Below are positions 4,036-59,697 of a stretch of DNA of 64,000 nucleotides, one piece after another. The position numbers and the translations under genes are program-made. Below the pieces are notes generated by a model. The model searched no databases. It saw only the letters and a program-made list of their open reading frames with translations, and was not told the DNA's origin. How positions within the stretch are numbered: the stretch's first letter is position 1; the number at the start of each line of letters is the position of its first letter. Origin of the DNA: a virus; the IMG/VR virus record IMGVR_UViG_3300037461_000951, positions 47,067-111,066 of that record; one strand, written 5' to 3'.

Positions 4036-4092
4036 ACTATACTACTCCGAATGACTCATTATATGTTATCCCAAAATTTAAGGACTGTCAAC

Positions 4093-4311
4093 ATGGCAAT
4101 GTTGTACGAACGCGAACGTCATCTACAAGTCATCGTAAAAAGTGAAACAAAAAAGATTTTAAAACAATTAGCAGATGAACATAGTTGCACACTTTCCAAA
4201 TTTGCAAATCAAGTTTTGGAAGAATATATTAATAAAAATTATCCACAATTAATAAATAAGAAACAACAAATTCTTCGTAAACCATTACCAAAATGTTTTG
4301 AAAATCTTTAA
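4093..4311 (+). CDS. Ribbon-helix-helix (CopG-like) DNA-binding protein
   Basis: HLQVIVKSETKKILKQLADEHSCTLSKFANQVLEEYI has the strand-helix-helix pattern; AAGGA RBS; divergent from rep. Confidence 0.7.
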   Translation: MAMLYERERHLQVIVKSETKKILKQLADEHSCTLSKFANQVLEEYINKNYPQLINKKQQILRKPLPKCFENL

Positions 4312-4354
4312 ACTAATACTTGTGTTTGACAGATTTTGATTAAATTTTGATGTG

Positions 4355-4623
4355 ATTATTCCCCCGATTGGTTGAGTAAGATATTAAATTATTCCCCCAA
4401 TTGGTTGAGTGATTTTTTCGTTTTTAAACTGAATTACAATCATTTAGCGAAAATTAAACCAATCGGGGGAATAATTGAAAAAAGTCAACCAATCGGGGGA
4501 ATAATTTGAAGATTTTTTAATAAATTTCTTAAGCATGACTCAACCAATCGGGGGAATAATGGTCAGATCTCTCAACCAATCGGGGGAATAATTTGCTAAA
4601 ATTAAACCAATCGGGGGAATAAT
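4355..4623. repeat. Iteron cluster / putative replication origin
   Basis: 19-bp AACCAATCGGGGGAATAAT direct copies at 4457, 4487, 4542, 4574, 4605; inverted copies at ~4355 and ~4388; AT-rich spacers. Confidence 0.85.
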
Positions 4624-4754
4624 TTGGAGATTTTTGACCATTTTTGAAGAGTTTTTGTGGGTTTCCCAAGTGTTTATTCAAGTCGTAACACTCCCAAGTG
4701 TTACGACGACTTGAAGTTTCAAAAAACGAAATTATTAAAAATCCATCATCAACA

Positions 4755-4859
4755 GTCTGTCCATCGGACAGACAGCTAATGAGGAGTCTGAACGAACACA
4801 ATAACTCCCTTCTTCGAAGGTCGTATTGGTTCGTCCCGACCTCTGATTCTCATTAGCTG
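4755..4859. other. Structured element with complementary loops next to the origin
   Basis: CAGCTAATGAG/CTCATTAGCTG 11-bp helix encloses two hairpins with complementary loops; preceded by hairpin GTCTGTCC-ATC-GGACAGAC. Confidence 0.5.
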
Positions 4860-5107
4860 GCTACACTCTTTTGGTTGGACTTCGATATGGAAACTGATAC
4901 TGCATACTGTGAAAAACATCTTATAAAAATCCCATGTTTCGCATTTTTTAATATTGCGCCGCAACCCACTCATGTAATCCGTCTCACAACCCACCAAATA
5001 GTCGATTGTAGCCATTTAAATGTTTCGGGAATGACAACGTAGCGGGTCGTTATCAAAGTGGCTAAAATTGCCATTTTGGTGGCTTCCCTTCGATGTCGAA
5101 GTTTCGG

Positions 5108-5136
5108 TTGACAACGGGAGTGGTGGCGAGTATAGT
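5108..5136 (+). promoter_or_regulatory. Sigma70 promoter for small RNA
   Basis: TTGACA-17 bp-TATAGT. Confidence 0.8.
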
Positions 5137-5141
5137 GAGGA

Positions 5142-5214
5142 TGCTGTGGGGTAGTATTGCTTCACATCATGCTTAATTCTCCGTAAAGCCCGAATTGCAA
5201 GATTCGGGTTTTTT
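5142..5214 (+). ncRNA. Putative ~70-nt small RNA carrying an anti-RBS sequence
   Basis: Lies between a consensus promoter and intrinsic terminator GCCCGAAT-TGCAAG-ATTCGGGT-T-tract; G-U-rich 5' hairpin; single-stranded CATGCTTAATTCTCC; no ORF. Confidence 0.65.
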
Positions 5215-5338
5215 AATCTTGTTTAAAATGTTTCCATACATTTTTCCAAAAAAGATCTAAAGAGTTACAATGCGTCCAATAATCATCTTCGTAGCTCACA
5301 TTCCAAAAAACCCAAAGCCAGTGAATGTAAAATTTCAT
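5213..5338 (-). CDS. Small Trp-rich protein (41 aa)
   Basis: Manual translation MKFYIHWLWVFWNVSYEDDYWTHCNSLDLFWKNVWKHFKQD; GGAGAG RBS; ends at the shared terminator. Confidence 0.5.
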   Translation of the reverse strand: MKFYIHWLWVFWNVSYEDDYWTHCNSLDLFWKNVWKHFKQD

Positions 5339-5355: not shown

Positions 5356-5393
5356 TTACTGGATAGTATAAATATATTTATACTATCCAGTAA
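5356..5393. repeat. Perfect 38-bp palindrome with no loop
   Basis: TTACTGGATAGTATAAATA|TATTTATACTATCCAGTAA. Confidence 0.9.
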
Positions 5394-13125: not shown

Positions 13126-13974
13126 TTAATCTCCATAAAGAATTTTGGCGATAGCAAGTTCTGCACAGATTGTTTTTCCTGAACTGGTTGCGGTGCCTAA
13201 AATTAAATTACAATCTTTATTCCAAACATTGGAATGATATACTGTGGTTTGCACATGATTAAATTCTTTAAATGGGTAGCGAATAAAAGGCCACTGTTCG
13301 GTGGGAACACACACTTGTTCGGTGTCGATGTCCCAATTTTTGAAGTTAGAGTTTTTTGGAAAAGTGGTATGAGATTTAATAGCTAATGTTTCAATTTTAC
13401 GTTCAATCTCGGGTGGTACTGCCGACATTTGGTAGTTTTGATCTTTAAATGGATTCTCTTTTAATGGATAATTTCTAAAAGCGTTTTCCATTTTATTGAA
13501 ACCGCTTTTACTGCATTGTCCAAAGATCGAACAACCATAAAAAACGGCTCCATCAGATTGACGTGTGCGTTTTACCGTGTGTACCCGATTCTGAACACAT
13601 TTACAAAAGCGATTTTGTTGTTGCATCAAATCTACGACCTTGTTCATGTGATTCACTCGGTCGGTTAAACGCTCTTGTACGGTAGTATCACCTTCTACTC
13701 GTAAAATTTTACTTTCTTGATAACAAATTTTACCGGCAAAGCGATCCCATAAAATGATACGAATAGCATCTTCTCCAACACTTCGAGTGAGTCCTTCTCG
13801 TTCTTCAACGGTCGTATAAATATGACATTCTAATCCATGGACCGGGTAACGATGGCAAATAACCAATTCTGTGCCACGGGTGGGCGTACTGATATGGTAG
13901 TCGTTGGGTCCGAAATAATGGTCAGCCCAAGCAGTAAAATCTTGTTTGGTTAAAGTAACGAATTCTTTGCTCAT
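13126..13974 (-). CDS. N-terminal part of split helicase (Zn-ribbon, Q motif, Walker A)
   Basis: C4 ribbon FCKC...FYGCSIFGQC; ends YPFKEFNHVQ...NLILGTATSSGKTICAELAIAKILYGD-stop. Confidence 0.85.
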   Translation of the reverse strand: MSKEFVTLTKQDFTAWADHYFGPNDYHISTPTRGTELVICHRYPVHGLECHIYTTVEEREGLTRSVGEDAIRIILWDRFAGKICYQESKILRVEGDTTVQERLTDRVNHMNKVVDLMQQQNRFCKCVQNRVHTVKRTRQSDGAVFYGCSIFGQCSKSGFNKMENAFRNYPLKENPFKDQNYQMSAVPPEIERKIETLAIKSHTTFPKNSNFKNWDIDTEQVCVPTEQWPFIRYPFKEFNHVQTTVYHSNVWNKDCNLILGTATSSGKTICAELAIAKILYGD

Positions 13975-14620: not shown

Positions 14621-14947
14621 TTATTTCAGTTCCAGAATTAAATCTTCAGGTTGGATGACATAACCAAACTCGCTACGTTGTTCATATCGATGTTTTTTTA
14701 CTGCGAAGTAATAAACACCTTGCGCATCATCCCCATTGATGGCTGCACGAACCATGAGTTCATCTTCATCCAAAGTGGGATCATCTACATCGCGTTCCCA
14801 ACACATCGTTTCAATGAGTTGACCTTTATTTTTTTTCAGCCAGTATAAATAATGAGCCTCTACACTGGTGGCTTTAGTGGGAAGTACAATAACATTAAGA
14901 TCTTGTTCATATTGTTCAGGAAAAAAGTGTCGTTGATTGTCGTTCAT
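14621..14947 (-). CDS. Hypothetical protein
   Basis: 108 aa, ATGA overlap with upstream gene. Confidence 0.6.
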   Translation of the reverse strand: MNDNQRHFFPEQYEQDLNVIVLPTKATSVEAHYLYWLKKNKGQLIETMCWERDVDDPTLDEDELMVRAAINGDDAQGVYYFAVKKHRYEQRSEFGYVIQPEDLILELK

Positions 14948-15363
14948 GCCTGTAAAGAGACTGCTGATTTGGTGGAAGGTTTTAGCTCTTTGAGCTTTCG
15001 CTTACTACGGAAGGTGCGATTTCCCTTAGTGGTGGTGGTGATTAAATTGAATTGTTTGGGATTGAGCCATTTTTTTAAATCTTCAATTGAAAATTGGGCC
15101 AGTTCAATAAATTTTTCAACTCCAAGTTCTTGTAATACTTTTTTATTGTCAGTCACGATGGTTTTTTCTGCGGGTGCTGTAATGAGCAATTCGAATTCTT
15201 TACCTGTTAAGTTTAAACTATCTTCTGGTAGATCTTTAATGATCGCTTCAATAATTTTTTTACAGCCGTCTTTAATTTTAGTTTGTTCCTTAATGATTTC
15301 GGAGCTACGACCGTATTGATCGATTTCAGACATGATTGCGGGTTTGACTTGAACATTTTGCAT
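14944..15363 (-). CDS. Hypothetical protein
   Basis: GGAGAATTAAC-ATG start. Confidence 0.7.
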   Translation of the reverse strand: MQNVQVKPAIMSEIDQYGRSSEIIKEQTKIKDGCKKIIEAIIKDLPEDSLNLTGKEFELLITAPAEKTIVTDNKKVLQELGVEKFIELAQFSIEDLKKWLNPKQFNLITTTTKGNRTFRSKRKLKELKPSTKSAVSLQA

Positions 15364-15531
15364 GTTAATTCTCCAGTGATTAAAGCACAACCCGGTTTTT
15401 GGGTTGACGTATTATATAGTGTATGACATGGAATGTCAAATGTCGCTCTTTAAAAAGTATTTGACATTTAAGTTCAGGTATAGTAACATATTGAAAACAT
15501 TTAATTTATTCACCTTTGAGAGGCTTTTGTC

Positions 15532-37075: not shown

Positions 37076-37714
37076 TTATATCTCATTTAAAGATTCTGTG
37101 GGTTTGGTGATTTTACGCTTGAGTGGGGTTTTCTTGACAGCGGGTTCTTTAGCGGGTTTCTTTTTAGTTTTAAATTCCAAAACTTCTGCGGTTTTTTGTA
37201 CGGTTACAACATCTGCTACAATTTCTTTAACGGGTTCAGTTACGGGAACATGTGGAGTTAAAACCTCCATGAGTTCTTCTACAATTTCCTTTTGTTGTAA
37301 GCGAAGTTCCAGCATTTTGGAAATTCGTTCTTGAGTTTTTTCATTCTCTTTATCGAAGTTGTTGGGAAGATTTGGAGTGGTGAGTAATGATACACCGCCT
37401 TCGTCCCATCCTTTTGTTCCATGGACTGCCCGTCTTCCGGTGCTGATAATGACTAATGCGGCATCTGGAACAGGTTCTTCCAAACTGAATGCTTTTTTGA
37501 TTTTAGTTAAGAGTGCTTTTGGAATGATTTTTTGTAGTGTGCCTTTTTGATAGTGGTTTAAAACCACATCAAGGATACCTTTGTACTGAGTACCCAAAGC
37601 TCTTTTAGCGAGAAATTGGATTCCTTTGGGTGAAAAAAAATTCTTATCACCTAAAAATTCAATCAATTCTTGTTGTTTAGACAAATTGCGTTGTCCGGTT
37701 TTAACTTCTGACAT
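37076..37714 (-). CDS. Hypothetical protein with Lys/Pro-rich tail
   Basis: Own promoter cassette, GGAGAATTAAC-ATG. Confidence 0.7.
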   Translation of the reverse strand: MSEVKTGQRNLSKQQELIEFLGDKNFFSPKGIQFLAKRALGTQYKGILDVVLNHYQKGTLQKIIPKALLTKIKKAFSLEEPVPDAALVIISTGRRAVHGTKGWDEGGVSLLTTPNLPNNFDKENEKTQERISKMLELRLQQKEIVEELMEVLTPHVPVTEPVKEIVADVVTVQKTAEVLEFKTKKKPAKEPAVKKTPLKRKITKPTESLNEI

Positions 37715-37794
37715 GTTAATTCTCCAGTAAATTTATACAGTTTGGGTTGCTTGGCGCATAGCGATTGTAACACAATGCGCCAGAGTTTTCAATG

Positions 37795-38565: not shown

Positions 38566-39108
38566 TTATCCACGGTAGTTTTTTCCTTCAATGGTGAGTG
38601 CTCCATTTTTCTTGAGTAGTTTTTTCTCAATTAATCCTTGTTTTGCAGTTTCCCATCGAGTTTCAGACATGCCAATTTGCTGTCGGCGTGAAATACCAGC
38701 ATAAGAGGCTTTAAATTGTTGAGTTGCTTTAAGACACCGTTTTTCATCTTCAGTTAGTGTTAGTGTTTGTGGATTCGGTAAGAGTTTGTTGATGTTTTCT
38801 TTATTGGTATAAATGAATAAACCGGCATCCTTACCGCAACTGATCATGTGCTCTACCACGGCGTGGTTGGGAGGAATTTCAAAAGAGGCGTGAGCAATTT
38901 TTAGAAATGGATTGGAAGTTTGTGAATCGGGAACTTGAATGTCTCCGGTAGTAAAATTAACGACTTTACAATAACTTCTTGAACCTTCATTCCAATAATT
39001 AGACATGCAATAACTATTGGATTCCACCAATCTAAATTTTTGTCCAGTATAGTCTGTATAGCAGTTTAAAATGGTTTGTGGAATTTCAGCTCTTTTTAAG
39101 TAATACAT
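38566..39108 (-). CDS. Hypothetical protein with C-terminal wHTH-like segment
   Basis: YWNEGSRS..; LIEKKLLKKNGALTIEG. Confidence 0.7.
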   Translation of the reverse strand: MYYLKRAEIPQTILNCYTDYTGQKFRLVESNSYCMSNYWNEGSRSYCKVVNFTTGDIQVPDSQTSNPFLKIAHASFEIPPNHAVVEHMISCGKDAGLFIYTNKENINKLLPNPQTLTLTEDEKRCLKATQQFKASYAGISRRQQIGMSETRWETAKQGLIEKKLLKKNGALTIEGKNYRG

Positions 39109-39180
39109 GTTAATTCTCCATGAGTGTTGGTATATACGCTTACTGGCGTAAGCGTATCATAGCATATTGTTAAAGAGTTT

Positions 39181-42435: not shown

Positions 42436-43549
42436 AAAATTCTCCATTAAAGAGTTTTTAGAATGTGAATGACTTTTTCAAGAATATGGATGCGTTCTTC
42501 CATCCATTCTATGGTAGTGTCATCAGCATAAGGTATGTGTCTATTTAAATGTTTTTTAGCGCTTTCTAAATCATCATAAATCTTTTTTATGTTATTTTGG
42601 TACCTTTGTATTTCAGCTTGAGCAAATTTTAAACGTTCTTCAATGGAATAAAATGGATTTTCCCATAAATTGAGCATAAAGATTCCTTAAAGTTCTTTCA
42701 ATTTGGTTTTTACGGTTTCAAGATTACATGTCGCCCATGTGGTTTTCTGATCCGTTTGTCGATAAGTAAATCTCATTGGTCTTTTACCGACAAATCCGAA
42801 CCAAATATCTCTATCTGATTCTTTTTCTACAATTCCTTTACAGTATGTTAAATCTAATTGCAGTTTGATTTCCAAACTTTTAAAAACATCGTAAGGAATG
42901 ATTGCCAGCAGTGTTGTTTTTTTGTCTGGTTTAAACATTGGCATCTTCCGTAAAGTGGATATGGTCAAAATCGCTTGACGCATTTATTTTAGCATGGATT
43001 CGAAGATATTACAAGTGGAATTTAATGTTTGACGATGAATGTGTAGGCACGTGTGTCTAGATGCTTAATCCGTCTGGTAAGCGGTCAAATCGGTCATTTT
43101 AGCGACTTTCTAACGACTCCAGTATCCCAACAACCCCTGGGTGGGAAAGTTGCTCAAATCGTCTCACAGGCGGTTTTTTGGATAGATAAAATTTCAACAG
43201 AACTTTTTTGTCTGGCCCCAAAAAGGCGGGGCTGTGCAGCAAAATCTGCCGAACAGCCCCGCCTTTACAGCATGGAGAATTTAATCAACGTCTAGCCAAC
43301 TATCTTCATTATCGAATAGTTTGGTTTTTTCAAACACCTCAAGTTGGAAATCATGAATTTCTTGAAAATCTCCAGCATAAGCCTTACACCATTTTTTTAC
43401 CAATTCTGGTTCTTCAAACAAATTGTATAAGTAATCTGCATCTTCTTGTTTTAAGGTGTAAATATAAGAGCATGGCTGATTGTACCAACCAATTCCCACC
43501 ACAATGAGTCGATTCTCGTAGTATTGAACTAACATATCAATTCTCCCAA

Positions 43550-44107
43550 TTAATTGAACAAATCCATATCACGAAGATAGTCATACACATCGGGGGGAAT
43601 TTCATCGTCTCGACGTGCTGCAAAGATACTATCATCGGTTTTGCGGCAGTATTCCATTCGCTCTTCTAGTGTGCAATCTTGCCAAAATTGATAAATGGCT
43701 TCATCTTGACGCTGGGAATAATCATCGTCATCTAAAATGGGATATTCGTTCTTTAAATAGTGGTACAGTTCATCGGCCTTTTCAATCAGCTCTTGTGGAG
43801 CATCTTCACGAATCATTAAATATTCTACCCAACCCACTGCCCAATGGGAAGCGGACCAGACGTACAGCCAATCACTTGGAAGTTCTTCCTCTTCCCCATA
43901 ATACGTTCTTTTGTAACGAGTGTTGGGTTTTGGTAAGTCTTCAATGATAGTTTCTAATTCTTGTTGTAAACATTCCCAATTGGATTCTGTTAGTAGTGTG
44001 GAATCTCTATGGCGGGAATATAAAACATAATCTCCAACGGGATCAAAACCAAAATAAGAATCGGGAGTTGTCCACTTTGGTAAGGTGATTTGTGTGGCTG
44101 TGTTCAT
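43550..44107 (-). CDS. Conserved acidic phage protein
   Basis: RDS.LL.ESNW...ASHWAVGWVEYL...YPILDDDDYS. Confidence 0.75.
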   Translation of the reverse strand: MNTATQITLPKWTTPDSYFGFDPVGDYVLYSRHRDSTLLTESNWECLQQELETIIEDLPKPNTRYKRTYYGEEEELPSDWLYVWSASHWAVGWVEYLMIREDAPQELIEKADELYHYLKNEYPILDDDDYSQRQDEAIYQFWQDCTLEERMEYCRKTDDSIFAARRDDEIPPDVYDYLRDMDLFN

Positions 44108-51244: not shown

Positions 51245-51529
51245 TTATGCCGCACCTTCATGTACCGTTATCTGTACTTTCCATGTATAACCATCGTCAT
51301 CATGGCTGACATATTCTAACAATTTAAGTTGACTTCCTAAATCTTTTAATACTTTATTTAGGATCTTTTTTACGGGTTCCATGTCATCTGGAACAAGATA
51401 CATGTGTTCGGGTAACGCTTCTCCATAAATGGCAGCGATATTAAAATTTTCTGCACAATCTTCACCGCACTCTTGTTCCAGCCAGTCCATGATTTCTTGA
51501 TCATGCATTTTTTTGGTTACTTCAATCAT
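51245..51529 (-). CDS. Hypothetical protein (tandem paralogue)
   Basis: HDQEIMDWLEQECGE...DDDGY.W. Confidence 0.7.
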   Translation of the reverse strand: MIEVTKKMHDQEIMDWLEQECGEDCAENFNIAAIYGEALPEHMYLVPDDMEPVKKILNKVLKDLGSQLKLLEYVSHDDDGYTWKVQITVHEGAA

Positions 51530-51992
51530 GCGTTTTCTCCGTAATTCAGTGGGTTGCGCAAAATTGGCGCAATTGCAGTGTATCACGCCAATAAAGAGTT
51601 TGCAATGGGATTATGTTAAAAATACACTCAAAATCTTGAATGAGTGTAGTGTGAAGTCTTGACTTAGTAAATTTTCCACAGCTAATCTTGCTACTTCTGC
51701 GCATGTCGCACAGAATCGAAAAGCACTCTTGCGAATACCATTCTTTCGAGTAATAGCAATGTATGTAATTCTAAACTCATTCATGTCAATTCTCCAGTCA
51801 ATAAAAAAACCACCTACGGTGGTTGGAAATGTTGTGCTTGCTAACGCAAACGAATTTTATCATGTCATTGAAGAATGTGCAACATAAATTGCAATCATTT
51901 GTTAGATAAATGGCTGTTTTTTGTAGAATTAATTTCCACGCCTCATCTACATCTGCTCCCAAAAATCCCGCCCGAAGGCGGGTGTTGAAGGA

Positions 51993-52340
51993 TTAAACGT
52001 AAAAGTCTAAGTGGTTGATAGTGGTTCGGAATGAATCTTCCATGTCATTATCTTCATCGTCATTGGATACATGAAATTGTTCTGACACATGACATTCTTC
52101 ATCATGTGTATCGGGATCACAAACCATCCCACAATCTGCACAAACCCAAATAGAAGCTTCCGGCCCAATGGCAAAGCGGTCATAACGACCTTTGCTTTTT
52201 AGTGGAAAGCTTGTGGAAACGACCTGTTCGACTTTTTCTTCATACTGCTTAGCGCATCCGGTGTCTTCATCGCATGGGATGAAGCCATCAGATGAACCGT
52301 ATGAATCCCAACCGGGACAATCTGTATTGAACATGCACAT
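51993..52340 (-). CDS. Cys/acidic hypothetical protein
   Basis: GGAGAATTAGC-ATG; followed by a UUCG-loop terminator. Confidence 0.65.
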   Translation of the reverse strand: MCMFNTDCPGWDSYGSSDGFIPCDEDTGCAKQYEEKVEQVVSTSFPLKSKGRYDRFAIGPEASIWVCADCGMVCDPDTHDEECHVSEQFHVSNDDEDNDMEDSFRTTINHLDFYV

Positions 52341-52611
52341 GCTAATTCTCCTCTTAGTTTGTGGAATAGCGATTGATGATCTTACGATCAACGATGTAAT
52401 CAAACCCTTTACGGTCAACATCTGCCAACGTGAGTGATGGACGACCGTCTTCCAGTACCACAATGGATACTAGATTTTCACGGTGATCTTTAGCCAACAA
52501 TTGATTGGCCCATTCTACCAGTCGGTCAAATGATGAATCGTTCTTCCACTGTGCAAATGACATAGCGCGAAGCATACTCAATTCTCCTCTGAATGAATGT
52601 GGTCAAATGGT

Positions 52612-55484: not shown

Positions 55485-56462
55485 TTAAGCAGCTCTGGCT
55501 GCTTTGCCAGTCTTGGGTTTGCTCACCTTGACTTCCGGTTTGATCGTCTCGGGCTTGGCTTCTGCCGCTTTAGCGGCATCGGCTGCTTTCTTAGCCCGCA
55601 ACCTTTCCAGTGCCGCGTTCGCGGCAGCAGCAAAATCTTTGGTGGATGACAACGTCTTAGCGACCGTCAAGCCACCTTCCGCCAGTAAACTAGCCAGTCG
55701 TTTCTGCGACTCAATCGCAGTTTGAACACTGGTATCTACTGGAATTTCTTCCACGATGGGACGTTGTAACAGCTCTGCGATGGTGTCGCAGTATTCAGCA
55801 CACCATTCATCTCGGATGGGGTTGTTTTCCACGTAGCCCATCTGTGGTGCCACGACTCTTGGCACTTTGGGTTGGAAATACACCAGCCAATCCTCATTGG
55901 TTGGTTTGACTTCCAACATCTGTACCAGCATGTCATCATACGCCGCCCACGGTTCTTCGTTGGAAACCTTAATTTTGGTGGGAGCCATGCCGTTCTTCAC
56001 TGACCGGCTCGTACCTACCCATAGTGATTGGGTCATTGCCATACGCCAGCTCTGTGCCCACGCAATGAACTCCTGTGGCCGACCCGTTTTAGCCGCATCC
56101 TTACTTTGATGTCGGTCCACCTTCGACTTTTTGGCCGAATTAAAAGCCAGCACAAATCTGGGACTGGTTCCGCAAGCATAACCTACGCTTACGGGATCGG
56201 CAATACCAACATACTCTTCCGGGATGAATTCCCCGGACTGAAAATCTTTCCAGTTTTCCAGCATCCATGCGACAATCTGGAAGTTGTTTCCATTACACAG
56301 TAGATGGGCAAACATGTTCGCCCGCATGTCCTTATTGGACACCGACAAGCCTGCTGTGGTTGTCTTGGGATTGGCCCGCTTGAGCTCTAATCCGGTGATT
56401 CCTTTGATGCACCGGATTAACTCCTCCCGTTGCTTGTGTACCAATTCGTTAGTCTTAGCCAT
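55485..56462 (-). CDS. Hypothetical protein with Ala/Lys-rich tail
   Basis: 325 aa; promoter cassette, GGAGAATTAGC-ATG. Confidence 0.75.
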   Translation of the reverse strand: MAKTNELVHKQREELIRCIKGITGLELKRANPKTTTAGLSVSNKDMRANMFAHLLCNGNNFQIVAWMLENWKDFQSGEFIPEEYVGIADPVSVGYACGTSPRFVLAFNSAKKSKVDRHQSKDAAKTGRPQEFIAWAQSWRMAMTQSLWVGTSRSVKNGMAPTKIKVSNEEPWAAYDDMLVQMLEVKPTNEDWLVYFQPKVPRVVAPQMGYVENNPIRDEWCAEYCDTIAELLQRPIVEEIPVDTSVQTAIESQKRLASLLAEGGLTVAKTLSSTKDFAAAANAALERLRAKKAADAAKAAEAKPETIKPEVKVSKPKTGKAARAA

Positions 56463-58586
56463 GCTAATTCTCCAATGCGGCAAAAAGTCTTAAAAAAAGC
56501 GCCAAGCGATAACTCGCTGGCGCGAATGAAGTATAGCACACTCAAAAAGAATGTGCAATGATTTTTTCAAAATTCTGGCAGTTGAATTGCTCCAAGTACT
56601 TCATCTGCCCACGAATATTTCTTAATTGCTTGCTGTTTGGCATCTGTTTCGCTTGGTGCCAAAAGCATAACGTTAACCTCCGCTCCATGGAAGTCATCTT
56701 GCACAACGTATAAAACAACAATGTATTCTTTCATGTCAATTCTCCAGTTAGTGCGCCATGCAGTATAGCTTGGCGCGTTTGCAGCATATCACGCTGCGAA
56801 AGATCATGCAATCATTAATTTGTAGCACTCTGTGGAATAAATGCCCGTTCCCCTTGTTTGTCCCAACAAGAGGGATAAATGATTTGGTATCGTGTGCTCT
56901 TATACACGGCAGAGCCGTCAGCAAAGAGCGTCAACGTGACATCGGGCGACAAGATCACGGAAATGCCCAAAAATCTTCGTACCCGAACAGCATAAAGTTT
57001 TCAGCCATAGTACCTTTCATCGTAGTTCTCCAGTGACGATCCATTGACCTTGGATCAGTTGAATAGATTTCGCTATCATCTTTTGATGACTGTGGGTAAG
57101 AGCGTGAGTCATTACGTCTTCCGCACACAGGTGTGGTGCTACCTGTCCACATGGGACGGGTAGTAAATCTCCATACTGGAGCCACACGGCAATCGATTTC
57201 TTTCCGTGTTTTTTCTGGTTGTCCATCATAAAACCTCAAAAAAAGTGAGAAATGAAATGGCTTTGCAGTATAAGACAAAGCCACTTCATTTCCCACTCTT
57301 GCGAGTGGGTGTTGGTGGTCTAGTAGTGTTGGCGCTCCATGTGCCAGTAACATTCTGTACTTTCAATCATGACCGGAAATTCTGAATCATTCGGTTCCTT
57401 AATCTGATTGATTAGCGGTTCTCCACTGATCGCTTCCCTCAACACCCAGATCATGGGTGCGGGTGCTGACCAGTTTCCGCAGATCGGGTTATAACCGCCC
57501 AACTCTTGGTGGGCGCACTTTCCGTAATTGCATTCTTGAGTCCATGCACTCGCTGTTCTGTATTTACACATTTCACACCTCCACGATTTCAGTTTCGCCA
57601 GTGTTCCAATCTTCCAGCCGAAGCCGGAAACAATCAGATGGATAAGCAGCTCTGGTAAAAGCTAATTTCAACAGAGCTTGTTTTCTAGTCAATTTACGAT
57701 ATGACTGAAAACCTTCAAAATAGCCGGGTTCGTCTGGAGCGCAGCCAAACCGACTGAAAATCTGTACAACAACGTTGTCAATCTCGTCCATCATCATTTC
57801 CTCATCGTTGTGAATTGCCCCACTCTGGTGAGTGGGGCGTGAATATCTTTAAAAAACTTCGCAGTTGCCCATCGCCGCCTCGACAATCAATTTGCAATCA
57901 CGCAAGCTTTTCTCGGGAAAGGCAATCCGCATCAATTTGATCTGGCTGACCTTACGGTCAGGGATCGTGATGCTCGCAAGAAGCGTAGCAAAGTCCCACT
58001 CGCGCTCCTTCACGATGGTGGAGTACTCGCCTTCGCTAACTACCAACTGCCGGGTAATCTCGATAGCCATGTTATTTCCTTCGTTGTGTAAGAGTGAAGT
58101 AGCGCACTCTCGTCGCTCCCATGAACACGGAACATTCTGTTCAATGCTCATGGGTAGCCATCCTTGGCCTGGAACATCACGAAATTTCAATCTGGATCGT
58201 ACTCCCATCCTTATGGGCCGTAAAGCCCTTGTGAAACGCACCTTTGATTTCGTAACCGTCGCGGCGGAGATCTTTCCCGATCTCCCGTAAAATCATCGCC
58301 ACGATATTTCCTTGTCGAGTGATGCTGTTCTTCACAGCATCTCCGAGCACCTCAATGGTGTAGTCTCGGTTCATTCTTATTCCAGCTAAGTTCATGACTT
58401 TTTCTCCGTAACGTCTTTGATGGTTTCTGGTTTGGCAAGCCATAAGTTTGCCACGGTTAAATACGCCAAAGTTTGCGCTCTGGCATAAGCTTGCTCTTTA
58501 CTCATACCAATTCTCCATTGGGTGGATAAAATTTAAAGATGCATCACCAGTGGCAGCACCTAAGTCTGCCACTGAGTTGCACCTTT

Positions 58587-59031: not shown

Positions 59032-59565
59032 TTAGACACGGGATTGCAGACACAGCTTCCAAAGGTCACCATCGAATTCTCCACGCCGCCAGTCTTCAAA
59101 CAAAATTCTGGCATCTTTCAAAAATTCCGTTTCTGCAAACAGCATGGGAAATCCTCGACCTCCACGTGCTTGCCCATCGTAAATCCCGAACTCTTGCATG
59201 TGACGATTCCATTCTCGTCCATGGGGATTGACGGTAATTCTTCGTAGCGCATGTGAGTAATACTGCCTCTGCGTAATGCCGTGGCACACTTCATGGACTC
59301 CCGTATGCGCCACTTGATTAAACAGATCATCAGCAGTCTGCACCCGGTTACAATCCAAGATGGTGTACGGTGAAATCGTCACCTTTGATACGTTCTGATC
59401 GAAGTAGTACGTACACACTCCCAAAGAGCGTGCTTGGGAATCTTTGCCTACCACAATGTGAGCAGCATCATTCCGTAACATTTTGCTCTTGTGAACGAGC
59501 AACTGAAACCACAACCAAGCCGCCTTAGCTTCGTTGGGACGATTCAAACCTTTGTTGAACTTCAT
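59032..59565 (-). CDS. SprT-like zinc metallopeptidase domain protein
   Basis: LGVC...HEVCH...PHGREW. Confidence 0.75.
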   Translation of the reverse strand: MKFNKGLNRPNEAKAAWLWFQLLVHKSKMLRNDAAHIVVGKDSQARSLGVCTYYFDQNVSKVTISPYTILDCNRVQTADDLFNQVAHTGVHEVCHGITQRQYYSHALRRITVNPHGREWNRHMQEFGIYDGQARGGRGFPMLFAETEFLKDARILFEDWRRGEFDGDLWKLCLQSRV

Positions 59566-59697
59566 GTCAATTCTCCCATTAGAGCGTTCACACGCTCTCT
59601 GAAAAGACGAAAATCTCTGAAAAAAGCGGTTGAAAAAATGTAGAGAAAAACAAGTGTTTTCCTCTACATCATTTGTTTCGCATGAAACAAACTTAGC

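Follow-up and report, generated by a model that had tools for sequence, protein, structure and literature searches.

A predicted phage small RNA complementary to the leader shared by a class of putative early genes

Does a short intergenic locus that carries a promoter, a hairpin and a terminator encode a small RNA directed against the leader that many genes of the same virus share, as an earlier note on this DNA proposed, or is it the mirror image of a lost gene start? We examined this question in a 64-kb stretch of viral DNA (the window), which is the final part of the 111-kb IMG/VR record IMGVR_UViG_3300037461_000951 (G000; completeness estimate 75%). Our best explanation, to which we give a probability of about one in two from the sequence, is that positions 5141-5217 (+) are an independent gene for a ~75-nt trans-acting anti-leader small RNA (sRNA), which would lower the translation of mRNAs tagged with GGAGAAUU, perhaps with the help of a ProQ protein of the phage. 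What the earlier note had observed was confirmed overall, and its interpretation was partly supported.

The window is divided into three parts: from 0 to 15 kb, the minus strand carries replication-type genes; from 15.5 to 33 kb, structural genes lie on the plus strand; and from 33 to 64 kb, a long series of small ORFans follows on the minus strand. A Pfam search at the curated cut-off gave no family for 10 ORFans of the last block, so that its label "early" is an inference from layout, made only on gene size, orientation and the absence of known domains. The relatives compared with G000 were G001, G002, G003, G004 (L096-L097), L003/L084 and L086. No close cultured relative of the phage was found, and searches of phage and plasmid collections in near and distant modes gave 0 matches; the sole related contig with a named source derives from an activated-sludge metagenome. 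A tRNA/tmRNA scan found nothing.

The candidate RNA and its architecture

The elements of the locus are collected in Table 1. The promoter claimed in the earlier note is present, in near-consensus form, and the locus is, by prediction, an independent transcription unit with a promoter, a Rho-independent terminator and no ORF. The plus-strand RNA (5143-5218) folds with -24.3 kcal/mol (z = -4.07), and 0 of 200 shuffled sequences folded as well. On the opposite strand, the 5′ hairpin is lost (z = -1.37), which bears out the claim that its wobble pairs work only on the plus strand. The stretch proposed to be single-stranded is predicted to be so, with an unpaired probability of at least 0.9 across most of 5167-5183, and its core is the exact reverse complement of a GGAGAATT-AAGC-ATG leader. 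The A-rich 5′ flank of the terminator (AAAG) pairs with the U-run. The terminator is common, in a tail-to-tail arrangement, to a minus-strand 41-aa gene, on whose side just three U follow the stem. The hairpin directly 5′ of the promoter is probably the end of another plus-strand RNA, encoded upstream (Block B, see below). A five-codon plus-strand frame (ATG...TAA) lies at 5169-5186 in the unpaired stretch, with no Shine-Dalgarno (SD) sequence before its start, and is probably meaningless.

Table 1. Coordinates of the predicted elements of the locus and of predicted target leaders in the window
Feature	Position	Strand	Details
Terminator-like short hairpin	5088..5101	+	directly 5′ of the promoter
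Sigma-70-type promoter	5108..5136	+	TTGACA (-35, 5108-5113), 17-nt spacer, TATAGT (-10, 5131-5136); 11/12
Inferred transcription start	~5141-5144	+	from promoter position
5′ hairpin	5145..5166	+	9 bp, 4-nt loop, three G-U/U-G pairs
Unpaired anti-leader seed	5167..5184 (18 nt)	+	core 5168-5182
Intrinsic terminator	5185..5217	+	12-bp stem (5185-5212), GCAA loop, six U
Orphan leader and two-codon frame (ATG ATG TGA)	5162..5182	-	mirror image of the seed
Trp-rich 41-aa gene, convergent	5213..5338	-	stop abuts the terminator; leader GGAGAGTT
Predicted target leader, AAC spacer	15361..15374	-	gene 14944-15363
Predicted target leader, AAC spacer	37712..37725	-	gene 37076-37714; -19.8 kcal/mol
Predicted target leader, AAC spacer	39106..39119	-	gene 38566-39108
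Predicted target leader	51530..51552	-	gene 51245-51529; two blocks, 10 + 7 bp; -23.0 kcal/mol
Predicted target leader, AGC spacer	52338..52351	-	gene 51993-52340
Predicted target leader, AGC spacer	56460..56473	-	325-aa gene 55485-56462; -20.4 kcal/mol
Predicted target leader, GAC spacer	59563..59576	-	gene 59032-59565

Statistical controls set limits on what this layout can say. Promoters that match at least 11 of 12 positions number 10 in the record, compared to 5.5 in shuffled sequences (about twice chance), and promoter-to-terminator units of 40-200 nt were seen 3 times, compared to ~2.6 expected from the promoter and terminator counts. In addition, real genes in this phage group often begin just past a hairpin, and the opposite strand then resembles an anti-leader followed by a terminator. 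Since these controls lie near chance and such mirror-image layouts occur, the case for an RNA does not stand on architecture alone; it rests on uneven conservation, on the orientation of the T-run and the wobble pairs, and on the finding of no minus-strand gene at the site in either lineage.

The leader family and its AAUU extension

We then looked at the leaders to which the seed is complementary. GGAGAATTNNNATG occurs in 16 copies, all on the minus strand, compared to 0.02 expected. GGAGAATT is the commonest 8-mer before predicted starts (20 of 222 genes) and has 25 minus-strand versus 5 plus-strand copies in the whole record; 21 of the 25 lie 2-5 nt 5′ of an ATG (ORFs of at least 37 aa), and 20 such genes are in the 33-64 kb block. 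After GGAG, which was found in 84 leaders, AATT comes next in 20, while the runner-up, AAAA, follows in 7. The starts given as examples in the earlier note (15363, 37714, 39108, 49914, 50700, 52340, 55435, 56462 and 59565) are all real gene starts, and its count of more than 20 genes holds for the GGAGAATT core with any spacer (21 genes), whereas the four spacers that it named (AAC, AGC, GAC and GCA) give just 11.

The complementarity is class-specific and favours the putative early block. When translation-initiation regions (TIRs) were scored against 5164-5188, a match of at least 8 contiguous complementary bases was found in 22 of the 68 TIRs of the 33-64 kb block versus 8 of the 152 elsewhere (odds ratio 8.6, p = 3e-7). 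The median duplex energy is -14 kcal/mol in this block and -10 to -12 kcal/mol in other gene sets, with a random-window mean of -7.7 kcal/mol. The earlier note had expected these leaders to rank top in a genome-wide duplex search. In a duplex-only scan of both genome strands, annotated TIRs made up ~23 of the 60 best sites and a few more resemble very short gene starts; many G-U-rich sites outside TIRs give similar scores. The best TIR duplex after the self site is that of gene 51245-51529.

As the RNA complement has a 4-nt spacer (AAGC), most targets would pair over 8-10 bp plus CAUG with a one-base bulge; for the common RRC-ATG leaders, the pairing, worked out by hand, is 10 bp plus CAUG across one bulged C. 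The 8-bp core is a modest interaction. Gene 14944-15363, whose leader ranks among the best predicted sRNA targets, lies downstream of the sigma-70 promoter at 15439 (-), which is the one perfect match (12/12) in the record. A short hairpin followed by GCAACCCAC (or GCAATTCA) was also seen just upstream of several early leaders (49381, 50720, 51556 and 55456, all on the minus strand), with a similar motif on the other strand at 4962 (+), the beginning of Block B; its function may lie in RNA processing or in a promoter element specific to the phage.

The conserved anti-SD tail of the 16S rRNA pairs with GGAG but cannot pair with the AAUU that follows it. The extension is nevertheless not confined to G000: G004, whose early proteins are ~60% identical, has ~30 starts with AATT, and L086 has several. 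When 34 orthologous leaders of G000 and G004 (63% protein identity) were compared position by position, the identity was ~0.33 over the 20 positions before GGAG, then 0.88, 0.79, 0.62 and 0.62 at A, A, T and T, and 0.38 thereafter. Since single orthologues flip between variants, the motif behaves as a preferred state and not simply as an inherited sequence. Judged from these alignments, the leader motif is under selection across lineages, and what reads AAUU could be an RNA, a protein or a preference of the ribosome for an A/U-rich spacer. In G004, the more distant relative, spacers of 4-5 nt (AAGT or AAGTC, for example at 13431, 22869 and 36990) are common and are one G-U pair short of the exact seed complement.

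Conservation of the locus and alternative readings

A scan with the neighbouring helicase led to L003 (helicase 92% identical), which is the only independent relative with the RNA locus; L084 carries the same locus. The other scans added no further one. The single-protein scan with the HTH neighbour gave no relative, and HTH alignment scans of viral and genome contigs gave only relatives of ~30% identity, none with a comparable downstream unit; HTH homologues with 46-78% identity are present in other assemblies. The scan with the Rep-like neighbour gave L002, which ends 151 nt short of the locus. A 15-mer scan of viral contigs matched 80 stretches, but the one homologous stretch, L024, belongs to the L003 contig itself, and a 20-mer metagenome scan found L084 alone, identical to L003 at the locus. 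L035 and L053, also matched by the 15-mer, were rejected as chance matches inside coding sequence, as were the two matches to a degenerate pattern of the 3′ half, both within a structural gene. The early-block contigs G003 and G004 are without the RNA locus; in the case of G004, a whole-contig scan found neither an sRNA-like unit nor the helicase, so the locus lies off this contig.

Conservation between the window and L003 is uneven. The -35 box is identical (6/6), and the -10 box is TATGAT in L003 versus TATAGT in the window, each matching the consensus at 5 of 6 positions with the mismatch at a different one. The 21 nt surrounding the seed are 100% identical in L003 and L084, and the terminator stem is kept, with one G and one U lost on opposite sides and one loop base changed. 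Just 7 of the 17 bases of the promoter spacer are kept, and between the -10 box and the hairpin the two sequences have diverged widely. L003 has a 5′ hairpin of its own in the same place (7 bp), in which one pair is altered on both sides (G-C to A-U) and two others by single changes that wobble pairing tolerates, and the two hairpins are out of register in the alignment. With -4.4 kcal/mol, the L003 hairpin is weak; among random mutants of the hairpin in the window, 24% fold equally well (p = 0.24), and its retention is not significant. Before the -35 box, L003 has a different and stronger plus-oriented hairpin with a T-run, as a separate 30-nt insert; as both genomes thus have a plus-oriented terminator just before the promoter, plus-strand transcription is expected in this region. 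In summary, L003 conserves the locus as one would expect of an sRNA gene, and the conservation in related phages asked for in the earlier note was found in this one relative for the -35 box, a consensus-like -10 box, the seed and the terminator stem.

This pattern bears on the reading in which the site is the orphan or relic start of a minus-strand gene (or a start-stop mini-frame), left when a cassette of hairpin, leader and gene lost its gene, with a promoter that is fortuitous or has another use and with no trans-acting RNA. Even decay would then be expected, yet the -35 box, the -10 box, the 21-nt seed region and the stem were kept while the promoter spacer and the hairpin sequence diverged to roughly 40-50% identity. 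The T-run also sits on the plus-strand side of the hairpin, and the wobble pairs suit the plus strand only. On the minus strand, the leader is directly followed by the Met-Met-stop described earlier, and L003 again has two codons (ATG AAG TGA), so that the two-codon state is common to both lineages; a 49-aa GTG frame that overlaps the site stops after 19 codons in L003. The judgement of the earlier note that this is an unlikely gene start was therefore upheld, since no intact minus-strand gene is found at the site in L003/L084. Moreover, 5168-5182 is the only intergenic orphan copy of GGAGAATT in 111 kb. What speaks for a relic is that the sequence falls within natural leader variation, including 4-5-nt spacers such as AAGT in G004, that a hairpin followed by a leader is the normal intergenic layout of the early block, that an equal mirror image at G004 14558 belongs to a real 109-aa gene, and that the promoter and promoter-terminator statistics alone are not above chance. 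Taken together, we consider a relic start unlikely.

The surroundings of the locus also differ in how they are conserved. Block A (4754-4860, +) is ~105 nt of non-coding sequence, ~96% identical to L003, with 39 pairs in its predicted fold, two of which are changed on both sides; no Rfam family matched this block, which likely encodes a further structured RNA on the plus strand. Block B (4980-5100, +) is ~120 nt, ~93% identical to L003, and ends in the terminator-like hairpin before the sRNA promoter; its fold has 33 pairs, and the five one-sided changes relative to L003 are all wobble-compatible on the plus strand. A perfect 38-bp palindrome (5356-5393) lies between the HTH and 41-aa genes and overlaps weak minus-strand promoter matches. 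In L003, its centre is identical, its outer arms are altered symmetrically and the adjacent HTH protein is ~60% identical, which suggests an operator that may be co-evolving with the HTH protein. In L003, the place of the RHH gene (4093-4311) and of the seven 19-bp iterons (4355-4625) is taken by an unrelated module, which has repeats of a different kind and a Rep-like gene of 384 aa (window 4040-4700 versus L003 9600-10360); close relatives thus seem to have swapped replicons. Because this module was replaced while the RNA and the two upstream blocks were kept, the RNA is not tied to the adjacent replicon. A role in plasmid-replicon copy control is rejected on the same ground, and the link to the replicon drawn in the earlier note is weak.

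A plus-strand sRNA could be real and have another job, the leader match being a by-product: it could be an antisense RNA or insulator against read-through from the operon of the 41-aa, HTH and helicase genes, a ligand or sponge of ProQ, or a regulator of host mRNAs via CUCC. It is a generic feature of sRNAs that a C-rich or CUCC seed is directed against SD sequences. The seed here goes beyond a plain SD and matches the phage-specific AAUU extension and the AUG, and the extension is under selection in the leaders. The RNA would be fully complementary to any minus-strand read-through transcript, and it is clustered with two other conserved, structured plus-strand blocks. ProQ ligands, for their part, often act via their terminators (PMC9977716). 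On balance, a different function for the RNA seems improbable to us.

The convergent 41-aa gene, which is intact in L003 (equal length, 66% identity, all Trp retained), is by this comparison a real gene, and no database homologue of its protein was found. A par/Fst-like type I toxin-antitoxin pair, in which this gene would be the toxin and the convergent RNA an antitoxin masking its ribosome-binding site, is very improbable: the two genes converge on a common bidirectional terminator, lie side by side in both lineages and could pair through the GGAGAGUU leader (8 bp including one G-U), but the Trp-rich peptide with its acidic middle is not membrane-like (maximum 15-residue hydropathy 0.59), the predicted duplex with the seed (-14.6 kcal/mol) is not outstanding but average for the early block (median -14), and more than 20 better-matched leaders elsewhere would be left unexplained.

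Proposed mode of action and relation to known systems

In the preferred reading of a trans-acting anti-leader sRNA, the host RNA polymerase would initiate at the near-consensus sigma-70 promoter, and the computed fold of the RNA consists of a 5′ hairpin, which would be protective, followed by the open seed of 18 nt and the intrinsic terminator. The seed would pair with the SD sequence, the spacer and the AUG of phage mRNAs with the GGAGAAUU leader; their complementarity is seen directly, and we infer the pairing in the cell. This pairing would block 30S binding, and the translation of ~20 small ORFan genes, mostly in the 33-64 kb minus-strand block, would drop together. The promoter looks unregulated, and therefore the RNA would accumulate with time and genome copy number. 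Its role could be a delayed shut-off, or a lock in a plasmid-like carrier state; a constitutive promoter fits a timed switch awkwardly.

A FinO-domain protein encoded by the phage may take part. A 129-aa ORF outside the window (G000:C1:43284-43673(-)) matches PF04352 (ProQ/FinO) with 52.7 bits at 43290-43583, and homologues are present in G001 and G002 (50-53 bits over the three records); G000 and G001 carry the RNA locus. [quoted passage not shown] Of these ligand features, the RNA sequence offers a 12-bp stem, six U and the AAAG flank, which makes the phage protein a plausible chaperone.

A wider reading, in which AAUU is an SD-extension address tag that is maintained in several lineages on ~20-30 early-type genes and a single sRNA with ProQ/FinO silences the class, as an RNA counterpart of T4 RegB/RegA, is put forward tentatively, with the odds somewhat against it. 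For large lytic or plasmid-like phages, the usual explanations of temporal control are sigma and anti-sigma factors, nucleases and repressor proteins. If the reading were true, a single virus-encoded RNA would silence an entire class of viral genes via a shared private leader tag. It would give phage-borne ProQ/FinO proteins a concrete role, offer a reason for the retention over long divergence of an SD extension unable to pair with 16S rRNA, and provide synthetic control with a leader and anti-leader that form a compact, orthogonal pair. If it were wrong, the locus would be a warning that a mirrored standard gene start beside a hairpin can mimic an sRNA.

Among known systems, FinP/FinO of F-like plasmids and Inc/FopA resemble the present case in that a FinO/ProQ-domain protein is encoded on the same element and the candidate RNA has a terminator, a U-tail and an A-rich flank. 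However, FinP and Inc each have a single target, to which they are antisense in cis; the candidate RNA would act in trans on ~20 leaders. As for a FinP-type cis-antisense arrangement, the opposite strand holds only the two-codon frame in both lineages.

In the case of c4 (P1/P7) and P4 CI, an RNA of a phage or plasmid-prophage blocks the translation of its own lytic-function mRNA at the ribosome-binding site (PMC12197685). [quoted passage not shown] The c4 RNA is processed from the operon under its control and uses two loop segments against one mRNA region. Unlike c4, the candidate RNA has a promoter to itself and one linear seed, and could reach many targets in trans, which lie at distances of 10-55 kb on the opposite strand. 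Rfam searches of the window at the gathering score, and of 4600-5300 at E-values up to 10, gave only noise and no C4 match. Hence, the analogy drawn in the earlier note with P1 C4 and P4 CI is one of function only and does not extend to family membership, given the lack of an Rfam match, the RNA's own promoter and its one seed.

The layout is that of the multi-target seed sRNAs of bacteria (RybB, GcvB, CcsR/Cuckoo and 6C-type C-rich sRNAs), which have a 5′ structure, a single-stranded conserved seed and a Rho-independent terminator and direct one seed against the translation-initiation regions of a whole gene class. These bacterial sRNAs are encoded on the chromosome, respond to stress and have targets with short motifs in common, whereas the regulon proposed here would be a gene class of the virus itself with a private SD extension. 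In T4, the RegB endoribonuclease and the RegA repressor bring about a global post-transcriptional shut-off of early genes through the GGAG ribosome-binding region; the T4 effectors are proteins, while the effector proposed here is an RNA. For the sRNAs of PAK_P3, a conserved 11-bp stretch in a stem-loop was proposed to bind and block ribosomes, and the phage targets are single 11-nt matches (PMC4933390). This paper does not support the PAK_P3 sRNAs as a precedent for targeting early-gene ribosome-binding sites. In summary, as far as the comparison of sequences goes, the candidate RNA is one that would work like FinP/FinO, c4/CI and the seed sRNAs, but it is a member of none of these families.
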